This document shows, piece by piece, positions 8,698 to 54,026 of a DNA stretch of 64,000 nt; the first letter of the stretch is position 1, and every line of letters begins with the position of its first letter. The notes below the pieces were generated by a model. That model saw nothing but the letters and a program-made list of their open reading frames with translations. It was not told the DNA's origin and ran no database searches. This stretch comes from Candidatus Woesearchaeota archaeon. GTDB taxonomy: Archaea; Nanobdellota; Nanobdellia; Woesearchaeales; UBA11576. The DNA is taken from assembly GCA_016929255.1 (NCBI GenBank), contig JAFGJH010000041.1, positions 4,313 through 68,312 of the forward strand, read 5' to 3'. The position numbers were made by a program, and so were the translations under genes.

Positions 8698-9909
8698 ATG
8701 TATGGCCAAAACCCCCCCAAAAGAATAGTCATTTCTAGGAAGGCGCAGGATGCCGGTAACGCGGCAACCCTGATAGCTGTCATCGCATTGCTCATCATCT
8801 TCTACCTGCTATTCATCCCGCCAAGCTTTAGGGACCAGATACTGGAAGGCAACGAATCCACAACATCAACAACAGGCACAACAGGGACGGTCAACGAGAC
8901 GATCCTCAAGGCAAGTCCGGGAACGCTCTCACGCATATCATCAGAAGAGATAGAGCACAGCATACCATCCATAGTCCTCTATTCAAAGAAGGAGTCAAAA
9001 GTCATCAGCTCGGTAGCTTCATTATCAGTCAAATCATCAGTTTTCAGCTCAAAGACAGCGGCAATGCAGTTCACGATAGAAGACCTCGAGAACACAGACA
9101 ACCTGCTCCTGACCTTCATCGACAAAAAGTACAAGGGAGCGCTTATAGTGACGGTCAACGGCAACGAGGTATTCAACGGCGAGGTCACGCAGGAGAATCC
9201 GGCTCCGGTCACGCTGAACAAGCAGTTTCTGGTCAGAGGGAGCAACAAGATAGACTTCACAGCAGAGAGCGCCGGATGGAGATTCTGGAAAGTAAACAGG
9301 CATGACCTGCAGAACATCCAGGTGACAGGCGAGATAAAGGACATCTCGCGGCAGATGAGCAGGAACATATTCATAGTCTCAGCGACAGAGAAGTCCAATG
9401 TCAAGCGGGACATACTCAGGTTCACTCCGGACTGCATGACAGGCAAGACAGGCAAGCTAAATGTCATGATAAACCAGCACTCAGTATACTACTCAGTGCC
9501 CGACTGCGGCGGAAGGATAGCGATTGAGTTCACGCCAGACGTGCTCAGGGAAGGGGAGAACACAATAGTGTTCGACAGCGAGGAAGGAAGCTACCTAATA
9601 GACCTGATAAGGATAACGTCAGAGCTCAAGGAAGTGCTGCAGCCCGCGTACTACTTCGAGATCACGAAAGAGACAATGGAAGACGTGAGGGACGGAGACT
9701 ACGATGTCACGCTGAAGATAACATTCACAGAGGACAACGACCAGAAGGCAGGAGTCCTCAACATAAACGGAAGGGAGACAAGCATATTCCAGCGTGAGAG
9801 GACATACACCAAGAACATCAACGACTACATCATCGAAGGCAACAATGCAATCAAGATAGTGCCTGAGACCATGCTTGAGATAGTTTCCCTAGAAGTCATC
9901 AAAGAATAA
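8698..9909 (+). CDS. secreted/membrane-anchored protein with three internal beta-rich repeats, function unknown
   Basis: 403-aa ORF. Basic N-terminus then one hydrophobic helix (ATLIAVIALLIIFYLLF), a Thr-rich linker, and three similar segments (..VTVNGNEVFNG..GSNKIDF.. / ..VMINQHSVYY..GENTIVF.. / ..LNINGRETSI..GNNAIKI..). AAGGTGA Shine-Dalgarno-like element 7 nt upstream. Confidence 0.75.
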   Translation: MYGQNPPKRIVISRKAQDAGNAATLIAVIALLIIFYLLFIPPSFRDQILEGNESTTSTTGTTGTVNETILKASPGTLSRISSEEIEHSIPSIVLYSKKESKVISSVASLSVKSSVFSSKTAAMQFTIEDLENTDNLLLTFIDKKYKGALIVTVNGNEVFNGEVTQENPAPVTLNKQFLVRGSNKIDFTAESAGWRFWKVNRHDLQNIQVTGEIKDISRQMSRNIFIVSATEKSNVKRDILRFTPDCMTGKTGKLNVMINQHSVYYSVPDCGGRIAIEFTPDVLREGENTIVFDSEEGSYLIDLIRITSELKEVLQPAYYFEITKETMEDVRDGDYDVTLKITFTEDNDQKAGVLNINGRETSIFQRERTYTKNINDYIIEGNNAIKIVPETMLEIVSLEVIKE

Positions 9910-9961: not shown

Positions 9962-12394
9962 GTGACAGTAGTTCTTATGCCTTTGACAAACACAGTACGA
10001 ATTCTGCAAGAGATGATTAAAGGCAAGAGAGCGATGTCGCCGATGCCTATGCCGAAACCAATGCCGAAACCTGCAGGTGGTGGTGGCGTTGGCGCAGGAA
10101 ATCCTGCAGGCGGCGGCGGAGGTGGCGCTGGCGGAGGTGCTGGTGGCAGCGGCAACCCTCTAGAGTCGCTCATGGGCGGCGGAGGCATGCCAGGGATGCC
10201 GGGCGGAAATCCTCTAGACCAGATTAAGGGCATGGCAAGCACAGGGTCAGGCGGGCTCATCAAACAGCATGAGGAAAAGATATCACAGCTGAAGCAGGAG
10301 ATAGCACAGCAGAAGGAGAATCTGAAGCAGGTCGATGCACAGATAGGCGGACCAGGGGGAGTCAAATCAAAGATTGACGCAGATAATACCTCGATAAGCG
10401 ATGCAAAAAAACAAGGTGCGGGAGTAGCACAGATACAGCAGATTGAGGCACATAAGGCACAGCTCGAGCAGCAGCTTCAGAAGCTGAATGAGCAGAAGGC
10501 AGCGATACAGGAAGTCATAAGGAAAAAAGAGGCAGAGATAGCTGTCGAGGAAGAAGCAATATCCAAGCTGAAAGGTGACCGCTGGACAGAACTTAAACTC
10601 AAAGCAGTCGGCTTCATCCCGGGCTACGGAACCGCGGCGGAGATAGCTGGCGAACAGGCCATGCAAATGAAGCATGGGGTCACAGAAGGAATGGCTGCGA
10701 AAAAAGAAGGAAAGATAGAAAGCGGCGCAGGCGAAGCTGAGAAAAAAGCAGCAGCTGCAGGCGAAGCCGCAAAAAGCGCAGGCGCATCAGCAGGACCAGC
10801 ACCAACCCCCACCCCCGCACCGTCAGGAGGAACCTCAGGCGGTGGCGGCGGAGGCGGACACATAGGAGGAGGCCTCCCTAATCTCGGAGCTCTCGGAGGA
10901 GGTGGCGGCGGAAGCGGCGGAATTGGCGGCGGAGAAAAGCCGCCAATAGTAACAGGACTGCTTGTAGGACTCAGCGTGCTCGGAGGAGGCATGGTGGTGA
11001 AATCATCAGGAAGCTTGGACATAGCGACGCTCCTTCCAGTGGTGATCCCAATAGCACTATTTATCACAGCACTGATATGCATCAGGCTCAGGTCAAAACA
11101 CTGGCTATTCCTTGTAGTTGGAATAATACTCCTAACAGGTTCGCTATACGGCGTAGCAACAAGGACAGCACCGCACGCTATTGCAGCATACCAGGCAGGA
11201 GCGATAGGTGAGTCAGGAGAACAGACACAAATCGCAGCGAAGAAAGGAGTTTCAGGAGTGATAGAGGATTTTTCAGTATCCTGGCAGAGACAGATGGCCA
11301 TCGCCAAAGGAGAGAATATAGACGGAGATGTAGACCAGCAAGTGAAAGAGGATGTAGGGCTCGAGATACTGCCGCCATACCTGCCGAACCCGACAAAGCT
11401 TAATCTCGATGAGGCAGGCACGCTCGAGATAGGGGCAAGGGTGAAAGGCTTCGATCCCAAGACACCAATAACCGCCACGACAGTGTGCCACATGCAGACA
11501 AGGGACGAGGCTGTCAGCTGGACAGGAAGCACAAGGACAGTCAAGCTCAACCCAGGCATCCAACAGAAGATCAGGCCGGTAACAGTCCAAGGCCACGCAT
11601 TCGACAGCGACATCATATGCTATCCAAGCATAACAAGATGCGGGCACTACGTGGTCACGATATCATCACAGGCAGACAACATAAGGACAGATGCGCAGAT
11701 GCAGAACTACATAATCGACAAGGAGATACTCAAGCAGAGGCTCAGGAGCTACGCAGAATCCAAAGACACGGAGTTGAGGTCAGAAAGCCAGGTCAACTCG
11801 GCGATAAACGAGATATACAAGGGGCAGGTCGGCAACTTCAAGTCAGTCTCGCAGAAAGGTGCGATAAAGGTGGTGATGGCAACGCAGCCTCTGGCACTGA
11901 TAGGCGTGGACCAGGAAACAGAACTCACGTTCAGGATGGGCATAGAGAACATGATGAACGGGTGGATAAGGACGCTCAACAGGGTGGAGGTAACCATACC
12001 CGGCTACTTCAGGCCATTGCCCGAGTACTGCACTAGCTGGCAGCTCGAAGGCAACAAGCTCATACTAAAACAGGAATACCTCAGGACAGTCAACCTTTAC
12101 GAAACAATAAGAGGAACACAGAAGATATTCCCCTCATGCCACCTCGTGCCGTCAGGAGATTACGCTCTGACAGAGCCCACAGAAGCCACGTTCCTTGCGC
12201 TCGTAGACTACAACTACATCGTCCAGTCAGAGTACAATGTAGAGATAAGGACAGCAGACGGCCAGATATGCAGAGAAGAAGCGAGCTCTGGCGGAAGCGG
12301 CGGAGGCGGTGCTGCCACCGGAGGATTACCGCATAACACAACAACAAATACCAGCAATAATCTAACAACATCTTTGAGCACGAACTCATCATAA
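9962..12394 (+). CDS. large membrane protein: Gly-rich/coiled-coil N-terminal part, TM segments, Cys-containing C-terminal ectodomain
   Basis: 810-aa ORF (GTG 9962; alternative ATGs at 9977 and 10013). It has poly-Gly tracts, a Q/K/E heptad region, hydrophobic helices (IVTGLLVGLSVLGGGMVV, LLPVVIPIALFITALICI, WLFLVVGIILLTGSLYGV) and a ~380-aa C-terminal domain ending in a G/N/T/S-rich tail. A TATA-like TTTTATAC lies ~25 nt upstream. Confidence 0.75.
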   Translation: MTVVLMPLTNTVRILQEMIKGKRAMSPMPMPKPMPKPAGGGGVGAGNPAGGGGGGAGGGAGGSGNPLESLMGGGGMPGMPGGNPLDQIKGMASTGSGGLIKQHEEKISQLKQEIAQQKENLKQVDAQIGGPGGVKSKIDADNTSISDAKKQGAGVAQIQQIEAHKAQLEQQLQKLNEQKAAIQEVIRKKEAEIAVEEEAISKLKGDRWTELKLKAVGFIPGYGTAAEIAGEQAMQMKHGVTEGMAAKKEGKIESGAGEAEKKAAAAGEAAKSAGASAGPAPTPTPAPSGGTSGGGGGGGHIGGGLPNLGALGGGGGGSGGIGGGEKPPIVTGLLVGLSVLGGGMVVKSSGSLDIATLLPVVIPIALFITALICIRLRSKHWLFLVVGIILLTGSLYGVATRTAPHAIAAYQAGAIGESGEQTQIAAKKGVSGVIEDFSVSWQRQMAIAKGENIDGDVDQQVKEDVGLEILPPYLPNPTKLNLDEAGTLEIGARVKGFDPKTPITATTVCHMQTRDEAVSWTGSTRTVKLNPGIQQKIRPVTVQGHAFDSDIICYPSITRCGHYVVTISSQADNIRTDAQMQNYIIDKEILKQRLRSYAESKDTELRSESQVNSAINEIYKGQVGNFKSVSQKGAIKVVMATQPLALIGVDQETELTFRMGIENMMNGWIRTLNRVEVTIPGYFRPLPEYCTSWQLEGNKLILKQEYLRTVNLYETIRGTQKIFPSCHLVPSGDYALTEPTEATFLALVDYNYIVQSEYNVEIRTADGQICREEASSGGSGGGGAATGGLPHNTTTNTSNNLTTSLSTNSS

Positions 12395-14637: not shown

Positions 14638-15606
14638 ATGAGGAAAGCAATCCTGATAACATTCGTCGCGTTCCTGCTGTTATTCGCAGCAGGATGCAAC
14701 AAGGAAGAGCAGCAGGGCCCAGTGGGCTCAAAGTTCGTAGGAGGCACAGAAGGCCTGTCCATAAGCTTTGCGCCGGGATCCATACCTGACAAGATACTCG
14801 ACAAAGACCAGCCGTTCGGCATAAGCGTGGTACTCACGAACAAAGGAGACCACACCATAGAGAACGGAGCAGATGCGACAGTCAAGATAACAGGGATAGA
14901 CCCGGCAGACTTCGGCGTTGGCGCAGGAGACCTGGTCCAGGACAGCCCAGGAACAATCAGGGGGGCACAGAAAGACGTCCAGGGAGCGGTCATACAGGGA
15001 GAGACAGTAAGCCTTGACTTCCCTGCAAGCGGAGCAAGCTTTGTCCACCAGAAAGAGATAGCAGGAGCAGTGACATACAATGTCAGGGCAGACGTGTGCT
15101 ACAAATACGGCACGGTAGCCAACACAAAGCTCTGCGTCCTTGAAGACATACTCGGCACCCACGGAGCATCAGGCAAGCTCTGCCAGATAAACGAGGACAA
15201 GGTCGTCGACAACTCAGGAGCCCCTGTCCAGATAGTATCATTCAGGGAATCGGTATCCTCGGCGAACAAAGTGGCATTTGTCTTCAAGATAAAGCATGTA
15301 GGCACAGGGACCGTCCATGAGATGGACAGCGAGTGCGCAAAGGAGTTCCAGCAGAAGGACAAAGTGCATGTAATGGTTGACACTGGCATATCAGACGGCC
15401 TGACGTGCTCAGGACTCCAGGACGGAGCAGCTTCAGGATCAGTTTATGAGGGCAATGCGCAGCTCCTCAACGGAGAGAGGGAGATAAGGTGCACACAGAA
15501 CATAAACAGCCCAACAGACCTCGAGAAACTGACCATAATAGAGCTCACATACGACTATGACCAGAACATAGAGAAAAGGCTCGAAGTCCAGCACGTGGGA
15601 GGATAA
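14638..15606 (+). CDS. predicted lipoprotein, paralog 3
   Basis: 322-aa ORF with lipobox LLFAAGC and a strong TAGGAGGT Shine-Dalgarno. Family motifs: GGTEGLSISF, VVLTNKGDHTI, VCYKYGTVANTKLCVLED, GAPVQI. Confidence 0.8.
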   Translation: MRKAILITFVAFLLLFAAGCNKEEQQGPVGSKFVGGTEGLSISFAPGSIPDKILDKDQPFGISVVLTNKGDHTIENGADATVKITGIDPADFGVGAGDLVQDSPGTIRGAQKDVQGAVIQGETVSLDFPASGASFVHQKEIAGAVTYNVRADVCYKYGTVANTKLCVLEDILGTHGASGKLCQINEDKVVDNSGAPVQIVSFRESVSSANKVAFVFKIKHVGTGTVHEMDSECAKEFQQKDKVHVMVDTGISDGLTCSGLQDGAASGSVYEGNAQLLNGEREIRCTQNINSPTDLEKLTIIELTYDYDQNIEKRLEVQHVGG

Positions 15607-15663: not shown

Positions 15664-15955
15664 TTAAAGCGGTGGCTGCAGCCACGCTGCTACCCTGCTG
15701 TCGGTTGCCATGTGAATTCTGTTTTGCTGGTTGCTGCGCAAACCCTGAAGAACAGACAAAAGCGCAACCATTCTGATTCTTTGGTCTGAGGACACGCAAA
15801 GAGCGGTGGCTGCAGCCACGCTGCTATCGGTCATGTTGGTTGCTATCTTTCTATCCTTTAGCCTGTTGCTGCGCAAACCCTGAAGAACAGACAAAAGTGC
15901 AACCATTCTGATTCTTTGGTCTGAGGACACGCAAAGAGCGGTGGCTGCAGCCACG
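15664..15955. repeat. tandem 134-135 bp repeat array (2 units) bounded by three copies of a palindromic hairpin motif
   Basis: GCGGTGGCTGCAGCCACG occurs at 15669, 15803 and 15938. The segment 15731-15820 matches 15866-15955 at 89 of 90 positions. The array lies between convergent gene ends. Confidence 0.9.
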
Positions 15956-16001
15956 AATTAATATTCATGGCCACTGCCGCTTTTCTGAAAATAATAAACA
16001 A

Positions 16002-17243
16002 TCACTTCCCGACGATGTTGAGGCTGGAAAAAGCATTCTCCACATCAGCCTTCGAGTAACCAGAACTCAAGAGGGAATGCCTTATCTTGTCAATGTCATC
16101 GCCATGGTCCATCGCCAGCTCAATCATAGGCAGTATCTCATCTATCTTAGACGGAAGGCTGCTGCCTCCATCATCAGTGCCGGAATCCATTCCAGTTTCT
16201 CCAGAAGGGGCATCATCATCAGACACACCCATCCTGCCTGCGTAACCTGAACTCTCAGGTTCATCAAAAGACCTGAGATCGTCAGGGCTTATGCTGACCG
16301 TCTCAGACGGCTCGAACCGGGTCATCATCAGCTCCTTCATGCGCTCCCCGAACTCGCTCATCAAGGCGTTCTCCTTGCGCGCCTTCTCCTCAATCACCTT
16401 CTGCTGCTTATCAAGCTTCACCTTCATCGAAGCAAGAGCAGCATTGAAGAGCGAGACCTTCTTCGCATGGTTCTTCATTATTATGAGCCTCTTCTCCTCC
16501 TCTTCCTTCCTCAACTGCTCAAGAGCGTCGGCATACTCAGCCTCCCTGGAGCCTATTACGCGCCCCTTTTCCGCAAGAGCGGCGTCGTTAGACTTAAGGC
16601 GCTCCTTCATCCTCATCATCTCATAAAGAAGCTTCTGGTTCTGTTCATCAGTGGAGAAGACGCGTTTCTCGACAGCGCCGACCTTGTTGTTGAGGGCAAA
16701 GACCTGCTTCCTGTAAGCGTCGATCTGCTGCTCAAGGTCACTGTTCCTGCTGTCCATCCCCTTCAACAGCGATGTCTTCTCGGCTAGCTTGTCCTTCAGC
16801 ACCCGGACCATACCATCCTTCTCAGCCACTTGCTTCCTGAGCTCTGTGTTGAGCCTGTCCAAATCCTGCAGCTGCCTCCTGCTGTCTAGGATGTCCTTTG
16901 AAAGCGACTCTATCCTGGCAGACTGGTCATCAATCTTCTGCTTCATCGAGTTGACGACATCCTCGCGCCTGGAAAGGTCAAGCTCAACAGGCTTAATGTC
17001 ATCAATCATCTCAGAAATCAGCCGGCGCTTATCCTCAAGCTCTCCCTTGAGCCTCTTGAGCTCAGCGCGCACAGCAGGATCAGAACCTGAACCTCCCATC
17101 TCCTGCCTCAGGCTCTCGAACTCCTCCGCGAACCTGGAGATGACCTCCTGATTCTTCCTCAGACGGTCGGCCAGCTCCTCATTGGAACGCATGATCTCCT
17201 GGCTCTTCTTCCCAATATCCTCAAGGATGCTATTTTCCACCAT
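16002..17243 (-). CDS. cytoplasmic coiled-coil protein, function unknown
   Basis: 413-aa ORF, almost entirely heptad-like E/K/R/L-rich, with an acidic Ser/Asp linker and a small C-terminal helical domain (IDEILPMIELAMDHGDDIDKIRHSLLSSGYSKADVENAF). Confidence 0.7.
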   Translation of the reverse strand: MVENSILEDIGKKSQEIMRSNEELADRLRKNQEVISRFAEEFESLRQEMGGSGSDPAVRAELKRLKGELEDKRRLISEMIDDIKPVELDLSRREDVVNSMKQKIDDQSARIESLSKDILDSRRQLQDLDRLNTELRKQVAEKDGMVRVLKDKLAEKTSLLKGMDSRNSDLEQQIDAYRKQVFALNNKVGAVEKRVFSTDEQNQKLLYEMMRMKERLKSNDAALAEKGRVIGSREAEYADALEQLRKEEEEKRLIIMKNHAKKVSLFNAALASMKVKLDKQQKVIEEKARKENALMSEFGERMKELMMTRFEPSETVSISPDDLRSFDEPESSGYAGRMGVSDDDAPSGETGMDSGTDDGGSSLPSKIDEILPMIELAMDHGDDIDKIRHSLLSSGYSKADVENAFSSLNIVGK

Positions 17244-22304: not shown

Positions 22305-22545
22305 ATCAGGGCAGCACAGCCAGGCTGCCAGTGGCGGCTGCTACGCTGCTATAGGCCATGTTGGTCGCTATCTTAGCAGCTTTCCTTCTGTTGCTGCGCA
22401 GACACCAAATAATAATAAAAAGTGCAAACCATTCCGATTCTTTGGTCTGATGACACGCAAAGAGCGGTAGTTCAGGCTTTGCATGAACATTGCAACCGTA
22501 GGTTGCTTTGGCAGCCACCATACAAGAAGAGGCGGCAGTGCTGCC
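22305..22545. repeat. single diverged copy of the 15664-15955 repeat unit plus extra hairpin motifs
   Basis: 22337-22468 aligns with unit 2 of the array (..ACGCTGCTAT.GG.CATGTTGGT.GCTATCTT.. and ..AAAAGTGCAA.CCATT.CGATTCTTTGGTCTGA.GACACGCAAAGAGCGGT). Inverted repeats GGCAGC..GCTGCC (22310-22329) and GGCAGTGCTGCC (22534-22545). It lies between convergent gene ends. Confidence 0.8.
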
Positions 22546-35859: not shown

Positions 35860-36055
35860 TGCCGCGAGCAGTGCTGCAGCACAGCGACGCTTGTTTTACC
35901 TGCGCCGCCACCAGAGCGCCCGCTCTGCATGATCTGCTGAGTGTATTTCCGAGAGTTTGGTCTGTCGCATATTGTTCCACCAGCTCGCAAGGCGCTGGTG
36001 GCGGCGTTAGTTTAATCTCTCGCAGGCTGGCGTTGCCTGCCTTGCCTGTGGCGAT
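35860..36055. repeat. GC-rich hairpin-bounded intergenic element (subfamily shared with 46350-46467 and 53919-54026)
   Basis: GCAGTGCTGCAGCACAGCGACGCT (35868-) matches 46355- at 23 of 24 positions. CCAGCTCGCAAGG is shared with 53999-. There is an extra inverted repeat GCAGGC..GCCTGC at 36022-36040. Confidence 0.75.
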
Positions 36056-46349: not shown

Positions 46350-46467
46350 TAGCGGCACTGCTGCAGCACAGCGACGCTCGCAGCACTTATTGTAACTATG
46401 ATTCTTCCGCGAGTTGGCCAACAAATTATTGGCCGCCTGGCTCGCAGGTCGTCAGTGCTGCAGCAGC
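46350..46467. repeat. GC-rich hairpin-bounded intergenic element (subfamily with 35860 and 53919)
   Basis: Terminal near-palindromes GCACTGCTGCAGCAC (46355-46369) and CAGTGCTGCAGCAGC (46453-46467). Internal TTCCGCGAGTTGG...CTGGCTCGCAGG. Confidence 0.75.
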
Positions 46468-53918: not shown

Positions 53919-54026
53919 CCGCACCACTGCCACAGCGCTCGCTCCAATCCATCATCCTCTCCGCCATTCCGCGAGTTGGTCAAGCGCGTATATTTCCGCC
54001 AGCTCGCAAGGCGGTGGCAGCGGCGC
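53919..54026. repeat. GC-rich hairpin-bounded intergenic element (subfamily with 35860 and 46350)
   Basis: The left arm ..CCACTGCCAC.. is complementary to the right arm ..GTGGCAG... Internal 9-bp stem GCGAGTTGG (53971-53979) / CCAGCTCGC (53999-54007). TTCCGCGAGTTGG is shared with 46405-. Confidence 0.75.

Follow-up and report, generated by a model that had tools for sequence, protein, structure and literature searches.

Stem-closed, non-coding repeats of a REP-, BIME- and MITE-like kind in the genome of a Woesearchaeota archaeon

Described repeat families and the tandem array

REP, BIME and REPIN sequences are bacterial extragenic repeats that are short, GC-rich and stem-forming. They are present in tens to hundreds of copies, are enriched between convergent genes and are specific to a species or a genus. 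They stand singly or in mosaic clusters, and compensatory changes keep their structure. Their mobilisation depends on RAYT, a Y1 transposase of the IS200/IS605 type. MITEs, such as Correia/NEMIS in Neisseria and SM1 to SM4 in Sulfolobus, are non-coding, multi-copy, intergenic sequences of 100-200 bp with terminal inverted repeats. Several body types with common ends are found among them, and their insertions are polymorphic between relatives. BOX in S. pneumoniae and ERIC/IRU in enterobacteria are intergenic, stem-forming, modular combinations with no associated transposase known. The attC sites of integrons, which range from 57 to 141 bp, show imperfect inverted repeats, conserved ends, a variable centre, an extrahelical base and a tandem arrangement. 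The repeats described here, called family A, resemble each of these groups in the traits listed, apart from RAYT and the bacterial host. No description of such repeats was found in the literature for Woesearchaeota or DPANN, and the REPIN/RAYT papers concern bacteria.

Family A also differs from every one of them. Its host is a DPANN archaeon, whereas REP, BIME and REPIN are bacterial. The family A unit is ~149 bp long, with a long, mostly unpaired interior and six conserved blocks, in contrast to the 20-40-bp hairpin or the full-length doublet hairpin of REP and REPIN. In arrays, direct units overlap by a self-complementary core, while BIME units alternate in orientation. The consensus tips (GGCWGCWGCC...) do not contain the GTAG/CGTC tag of REP, and Y1_Tnp is absent from the genome. 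As for MITEs, no target-site duplication could be defined and the 93%-complete assembly yielded no parent IS with matching ends; in arrays, the tips of neighbouring units overlap, and internal blocks and a helix are conserved. No sequence relationship with BOX or ERIC/IRU is known, and the host domain and the module organisation are different. Compared with attC, the consensus ends do not have the R''/R' core motifs (RYYYAAC, GTTRRRY), there are no cassette ORFs and no integron integrase context, the copies are scattered in the core genome, and the tyrosine recombinase gene lies on another contig. In contrast to IS200/IS605 elements (TnpB omega-RNA or PATE-like), there is no associated tnpA (no PF01797) and no credible tnpB.

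The window analysed is a stretch of 64,000 nucleotides, corresponding to positions 4313-68312 of contig C10, from a 93%-complete MAG of 1.21 Mb in 60 contigs. The RFC small subunit of this genome shares 93% identity with that of a "Nanoarchaeota/Woesearchaeota" MAG, and every close relative belongs to Woesearchaeota, which makes the host a DPANN archaeon. Coordinates without a contig name are those of the window (Table 1). Tandem Repeats Finder reported an array at 15668-15955 with a period of 135, 2.1 copies, 88% matches and a score of 446, in agreement with the two units and the period of 134/135 bp described in the earlier note. The 18-mer GCGGTGGCTGCAGCCACG was found, as had been claimed, three times, at 15669, 15803 and 15938. 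It is present at no other site in the window even when two mismatches are allowed, and its expected number by chance is 0 (100 dinucleotide shuffles). The stretches at 15731-15820 and 15866-15955 are indeed identical at 89 of 90 positions, with the lone mismatch at 15763, and only 31 positions match between the units in the 44-45 bp preceding them. The unit of ~80% similarity noticed 6.5 kb away was recovered too. The array occupies the gap between two convergent genes. The upstream one, whose function is unknown, is kept in 12 of 12 genomes of the genus.

Most probably, the array is a head-to-tail pair of the ~149-bp family A element, which is non-coding and non-autonomous and would be mobilised in trans. 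Family A itself is best read as a repeat family of a DPANN archaeon that bears structure, is non-autonomous and is similar to REP, BIME and MITE elements.

Table 1. Positions of the array, its parts and its neighbours in the window.
Feature	Position	Strand	Description
Unit 1, family A	15674-15817	+	Bounded by the first and the second core (GGCTGCAGCC)
Unit 2, family A	15808-15952	+	nhmmer match C10:20117-20265, E 3e-40
Terminal palindrome 1	15669-15686	.	GC-G-GTGGC TGCA GCCAC-GC, that is, right-end motif, core and left-end motif
Junction palindrome, common to units 1 and 2	15803-15820	.	Right and left inverted repeats, of units 1 and 2 respectively, overlap here
Terminal palindrome 3, right end of unit 2	15938-15955	.	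Third occurrence of the 18-mer GCGGTGGCTGCAGCCACG
3' segment of unit 1	15730-15820	+	Near-identical to 15865-15955; starts at conserved block B4 (GTTGCTGCGCAA); recombination or gene-conversion tract
P2 5' arm GGTTGC, unit 1	15703-15708	+	Pairs with GCAACC at 15764-15769
P2 arms, unit 2	15838-15843 and 15899-15904
Putative right-end module remnant, inverted	15969-15984	-	Adjoins the array; minus strand AAAAGCGGCAGTGGCC
96-aa ORF, spurious	15664-15954	-	Translates the repeat; no Pfam match; frame not kept among copies
Upstream flanking gene	14638-15606	+	Last gene of a surface-protein cluster; converges on the array
Downstream flanking gene	16002-17243	-	Coiled-coil protein; converges on the array
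Solitary family A copy (locus B)	22331-22476	+	80% identical to unit 2 over 137 bp

Unit 1 corresponds to the nhmmer match C10:19983-20129 (E 1e-38), and its overlap with unit 2 is the 10-bp core. The 5' third of unit 1 belongs to a different lineage from unit 2, with its nearest 5' relative at C38_18377 (79%), whereas identity to unit 2 is 98% in the 3' part. Beside the array, the short minus-strand segment at 15969-15984 is probably an inverted remnant of a right-end module, judging from its comparison with the right-end consensus ...AAAGCGGYGGCAG.

The solitary copy at locus B also lies between convergent genes, which encode an M24 peptidase and an M29 peptidase. Its right inverted repeat is split by a 45-nt module (AGTTCAGGCTTTGCATGAAC...GGTTGCTTT) in the region 22477-22545, and the same end-splitting module is seen in contigs C20, C50 and C55. 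Beyond the module, there are another GGCAGTGCTGCC palindrome and hairpin modules up to ~22545. The split end resembles a nested end module or a variant of one.

Ends and interior of the unit

From 5' to 3', the family A unit reads [GGCWGCW]GCCRCGCTGCTA - variable - GTCGGYTGCTA - variable - GT(T)GCTGCGCAA - variable - AAGTGCARCCCATTCC - variable - CTGAGGACACGCAARAGCGGYGGC[WGCWGCC]. It is bounded by terminal inverted repeats of 14 bp, GGCWGCWGCCRCGC at the 5' end and GCGGYGGCWGCWGCC at the 3' end. They contain a single conserved bulged G, and their outer 10 bp (GGCWGCWGCC) are self-complementary.

The two ends can pair with each other in a stem, P1. Among 24 copies, 93.6% of the cells of this stem are paired, changes on both sides are seen in 5 of 14 pairs, and none of 500 shuffles matches the observed pairing. 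Hairpins formed locally at the two ends, which were considered as the conserved feature and rejected, reach no more than 69% and 83% of paired cells. A subfamily with non-palindromic tips (GGCAGCACCGCC / GGCAGTGCTGCC) retains inverted ends. As end-to-end pairing is stronger than the local hairpins and is kept in this subfamily, the conserved feature is the pair of terminal inverted repeats. The earlier note took a 14-bp palindrome for the punctuation of the array. It is instead the overlapping, self-complementary tip of the terminal inverted repeats. Adjoining units have the 10-bp core in common, and this accounts both for the apparent palindrome and for the period of 134/135 bp in an array of ~149-bp units.

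A second helix, P2 (GGYTGC/GCARCC, 6 bp), is paired in 95%. At the middle pair, 16 copies have U:A and 8 have C:G, and none is discordant. This covariation persists despite the position of the recombination-prone block B4 between the two arms.

Six internal blocks are near-invariant in 24-29 copies, while the segments between them are ~50% diverged. The blocks are conserved far beyond what a classical MITE needs, which leaves room for a host function. Together with the covariation in P1 and P2, this conservation would also fit a different reading, in which the copies are structured non-coding RNAs or cis-acting 3'-UTR elements (mRNA stabilisers, or a terminator or insulator) kept by the host, and the blocks are RNA- or protein-binding motifs. 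The folds point the same way. When unit 2 is folded as single-stranded DNA, P1 and P2 are retained in the centroid structure, with z = -2.6, and the single-strand folds of all copies are more stable than shuffles, with a mean z of ~-3. The finer tests of structure speak against it. When the variable segments V2, V3 and V4 were swapped between copies, cognate and chimeric folds were equal in energy, and these segments show no intramolecular covariation. A candidate 3' hairpin was no better than shuffles. The exceptions to pairing are 10 G:U and 10 A:C, so that neither strand is favoured. On the results of the swaps and of the 3' hairpin, a conserved RNA fold of the whole element was rejected, and only P1 and P2 survive.

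No Rfam match at the gathering score was found in the window, with only chance-level matches at E <= 1 around the array, and no tRNA or tmRNA was found in the window; a known RNA or tRNA was rejected on these grounds. A C/D-box sRNA was rejected as well, as the CTGATGA...CTGA pair is present in few copies only and its spacing is wrong. The unit has no conserved promoter or oligo-T tract. Two other structured arrangements were considered and rejected. In a template/variable repeat pair of a DGR, the differences would be adenine-specific; those between the units are not, and the family has ~50 copies. A CRISPR-like array is not consistent with dispersed copies and the lack of a repeat-spacer structure.

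Copies in the genome and in congeneric species

The earlier note described a local two-unit array with one outlier. This proved too narrow, as the units belong to a genome-wide family. With the unit as a BLAST query, 63 matches were found in the genome, and an nhmmer profile built from 15 copies found 58 family A matches, 29 of them full length. BLAST of the genome against itself revealed 137 repeated regions with a total of 17.6 kb, or ~1.5% of the genome. By single-linkage clustering, 92 of them fall into one cluster, a superfamily of at least 92 loci, which takes in other body types whose ends are common to family A. DPANN genomes are streamlined, ~1 Mb in size, and thought to be repeat-poor. 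Here, at least 1.3-1.5% consists of diversified stem-closed repeats that turn over between sister species.

At least 15 family A matches are located at contig ends, so the assembly is broken by the family. The number of copies and the length of arrays are therefore uncertain, as they come from a 93%-complete MAG that is broken at these very repeats. The repeats appear to be a general, indeed the main, cause of contig ends in the MAGs of the genus. At locus L031, the assembly of the closest relative (G002, the JAHJSS01 MAG) (contigs C81 and C21) breaks at the orthologous intergenic site, which is occupied by another repeat family.

Other stem-closed repeats are present in the window and beyond. 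Copies of a second stem-closed family, which has ~15-20 copies genome-wide, are seen at 35860-36055, 46350-46467 and 53919-54026 of the window. Its layout is X-GCGCTCGC ... CAGCTCGCWAGG-X', where the arms X and X' differ by copy and remain complementary, and the central block is found in either orientation depending on the subfamily. The "GCTCGC" family has ~15-20 copies, and its terminal stems vary in sequence and stay complementary.

The position of family A copies relative to genes is biased. Based on a crude gene call, 11 of the 23 intergenic copies are in convergent gaps, 8 in tandem gaps and 4 in divergent gaps; the genome-wide shares of such gaps are 19%, 61% and 20%, respectively. Like REP elements, family A copies avoid promoters and gather at 3' gene ends. 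Their neighbours include housekeeping genes for RFC, Tyr/Trp-tRNA synthetase and peptidases. The enrichment downstream of genes is in line with RNAs or 3'-UTR elements kept by the host. The orientation of the copies relative to tandem genes, on the other hand, is only weakly biased (8 versus 3-4).

Family A copies come and go between congeneric species. The gap that holds the array is empty in five genomes (G004, G005, G006, G009 and G010), and in six others (G001, G002, G003, G007, G008 and G011) the stem-closed elements that it carries are different ones, in either orientation. A further eight family A sites were compared with the closest relative. Four of them (C3, C34, C51_18747 and locus B of the window) are empty there, two (C8_20166 and C57) hold a different family, and one (C54) has a diverged related element; for C51_23222, just one flank was located. 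We infer movement solely from this presence or absence between species. That sister species have empty sites, or unrelated families, at orthologous positions disagrees with elements kept by the host. With this and the negative results on fold, strand and Rfam, it is unlikely that the copies are host-maintained RNAs or cis-acting elements, and a mobile, structure-bearing repeat is preferred.

There is no core-like sequence at the empty orthologous sites, which implies that the core belongs to the element. For the same reason, the core palindrome was rejected as a duplicated target site. No consistent direct repeat that could be a target-site duplication was found in the flanks of 24 copies. In the comparison of filled and empty sites with the closest relative, the spacer is too diverged to fix the boundaries of the element.

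The elements are confined to one genus. Of the 12 genomes of the genus, 7 have family A matches; the 29 other relatives have none. The pattern of the termini was seen in 0 of 150 genomes from 143 other genera of the order, where the reversed-pattern control is also absent. Among GTDB species representatives, real copies are present solely in Woesearchaeota MAGs of the same clade. Virus-borne copies were considered and rejected: the three pattern matches in IMG/VR are chance matches on GC-rich contigs.

Half-wise mosaicism is a general property of family A. The nearest relative agrees for both halves in only 8 of 28 copies, and the identities of the two halves are correlated with r = 0.48. Units 1 and 2 of the array are 75% identical in the 5' half and 98% in the 3' half. 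The copies on C50 and C55 show 74% and 99%, while those at C58 and C28_17954 show the opposite, 100% in the 5' half and 78% in the 3' half. In the array, the identity begins exactly at B4 and breaks one base further left. The near-identical 3' 90 bp and the divergent 5' 45 bp of the two units result from recombination or gene conversion at B4 between family members. The proposal of the earlier note, modular exchange rather than simple duplication, is thus borne out by the start of identity at B4 and by the recurrence of half-wise discordance in other pairs.

Proposed mobilisation and the joining of units

Known transposases were searched for in the genome that carries the array. Y1_Tnp/RAYT (PF01797) gave no match at E <= 0.01 in this genome, while control genomes were matched. 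No IS110-type gene (PF01548) was found in it, and for TnpB (PF07282) there was merely a sub-threshold zinc-ribbon match of 19 bits. None of these three candidates is usable. An autonomous element was sought in the same 93%-complete genome as a left end and a right end 200-5000 bp apart; the sole match was locus B, where the right end is interrupted. The genes closely flanked by copies were rejected as transposases, as they encode DUF58, membrane, Ig-like and trypsin-like proteins. Since no known transposase stands alongside the repeats, they are a practical starting point in the search for a possibly new mobilisation enzyme, or for a host function of archaeal extragenic repeats.

Units are joined in a uniform way. 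The junction of right end, core and left end has 17 precise occurrences in the genome. A second tandem array at C10:79152-79489, outside the window, has a period of 132, 2.6 copies and 90% matches. Its body is of a different, 132-bp type, and its terminal modules and junction palindrome are as in family A. An array of mixed families, A-E-A, is located at C15:11080-11500, and others are on C7, C17 and C30, always with the same junction. New copies thus seem to join at a terminal core already in place rather than to arise by simple duplication.

These observations are consistent with a mechanism in which an enzyme acting in trans would move the family A element. It would recognise the folded form, that is, the P1 stem with its bulged G and the 6-bp P2, in a way akin to the recognition of REP/REPIN by RAYT, of IS200/IS605 ends or of attC sites. 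New copies would preferentially insert at or next to a terminal core that is already there, and arrays would result. If there is an effect on the host, whether on the 3' ends of mRNAs or by serving as a protein-binding site, it would be secondary. A wider reading is tentative and has a rather low probability: the elements may be an archaeal counterpart of the REPIN-RAYT or the attC-integrase system, as lineage-restricted, vertically persisting structured DNA replicators. A single-copy, unrecognised enzyme would then read P1 with its bulge and P2, and the internal blocks could be useful to the host, for example by organising the 3' ends of convergent genes.

The arrays may also be seen as products of site-specific recombination. 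The mobile unit would be a ~135-bp circle of the body and one palindrome, which a tyrosine or other site-specific recombinase integrates at the core, as is the case for integron cassettes and for elements that exploit Xer. Body and one core add up to the period, the three cores of the array are identical, and the two ends of each copy carry one core variant, CTGCAG or CAGCTG. The precise junctions shared in mixed arrays, the full palindrome at both ends in about half of the solitary copies and the conserved bulged base, which recalls the extrahelical bases of attC, fit such a circle. The genome also encodes a tyrosine recombinase (PF00589, 90.7 bits), the only one detected, at C57:40573-41079. 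However, no core-like target is present at the empty orthologous sites. The subfamilies with non-palindromic tips have inverted rather than direct end repeats, which is the opposite of duplicated attachment sites. The attC motifs and cassette ORFs are missing, and the copies are scattered among housekeeping genes. Integration of a circle at the core is therefore quite improbable, and trans-mobilisation of a family with inverted, folded ends remains the preferred reading.

For annotation, the array is an ordinary repeat element, not a gene. The earlier note regarded the minus-strand ORFs over the array and the distant unit as mere translations of the repeat, and this was upheld. Both ORFs exist; with frames anchored on the conserved 3' block, the best one is open in at most 9-10 of 28 copies. 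The length differences among variable segments are not multiples of 3, and neither the 96-aa nor the 71-aa ORF matched Pfam. A coding gene was rejected because of the unconserved frame and the absence of a Pfam match. Of the repeated regions counted as genic by the crude gene call, most lie only in short ORFs of 80-136 aa that translate a repeat. Gene callers will annotate the spurious ORFs to which such repeats give rise. An assembly artefact in the array, by collapse or chimera of dispersed copies, or a real gene in the 96-aa ORF is scarcely credible: the assembly is indeed broken by the family at many contig ends, the units are nearly identical over their 3' 90 bp and the ORF is open across both units, but the distinct 5' thirds anchor each unit uniquely, similar arrays are present at other loci and in relatives, and the reading frame is unconserved with no family match.

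A separate, classical MITE is present in four copies in the genome, at C28:14995-15155, C14:~9105-9265, C17:~1595-1755 and C51:~10195-10355. It is 161 bp long, with terminal inverted repeats GGCTCTGTCCC/GGGACAGAGCC and target-site duplications of 8-9 bp, such as AGACAAGCA at C28 and GGTATGTG at C17. It implies a DDE-type transposase, active now or formerly in the lineage. It serves as an example of a DDE-type MITE in this genome, and family A is unlike it.
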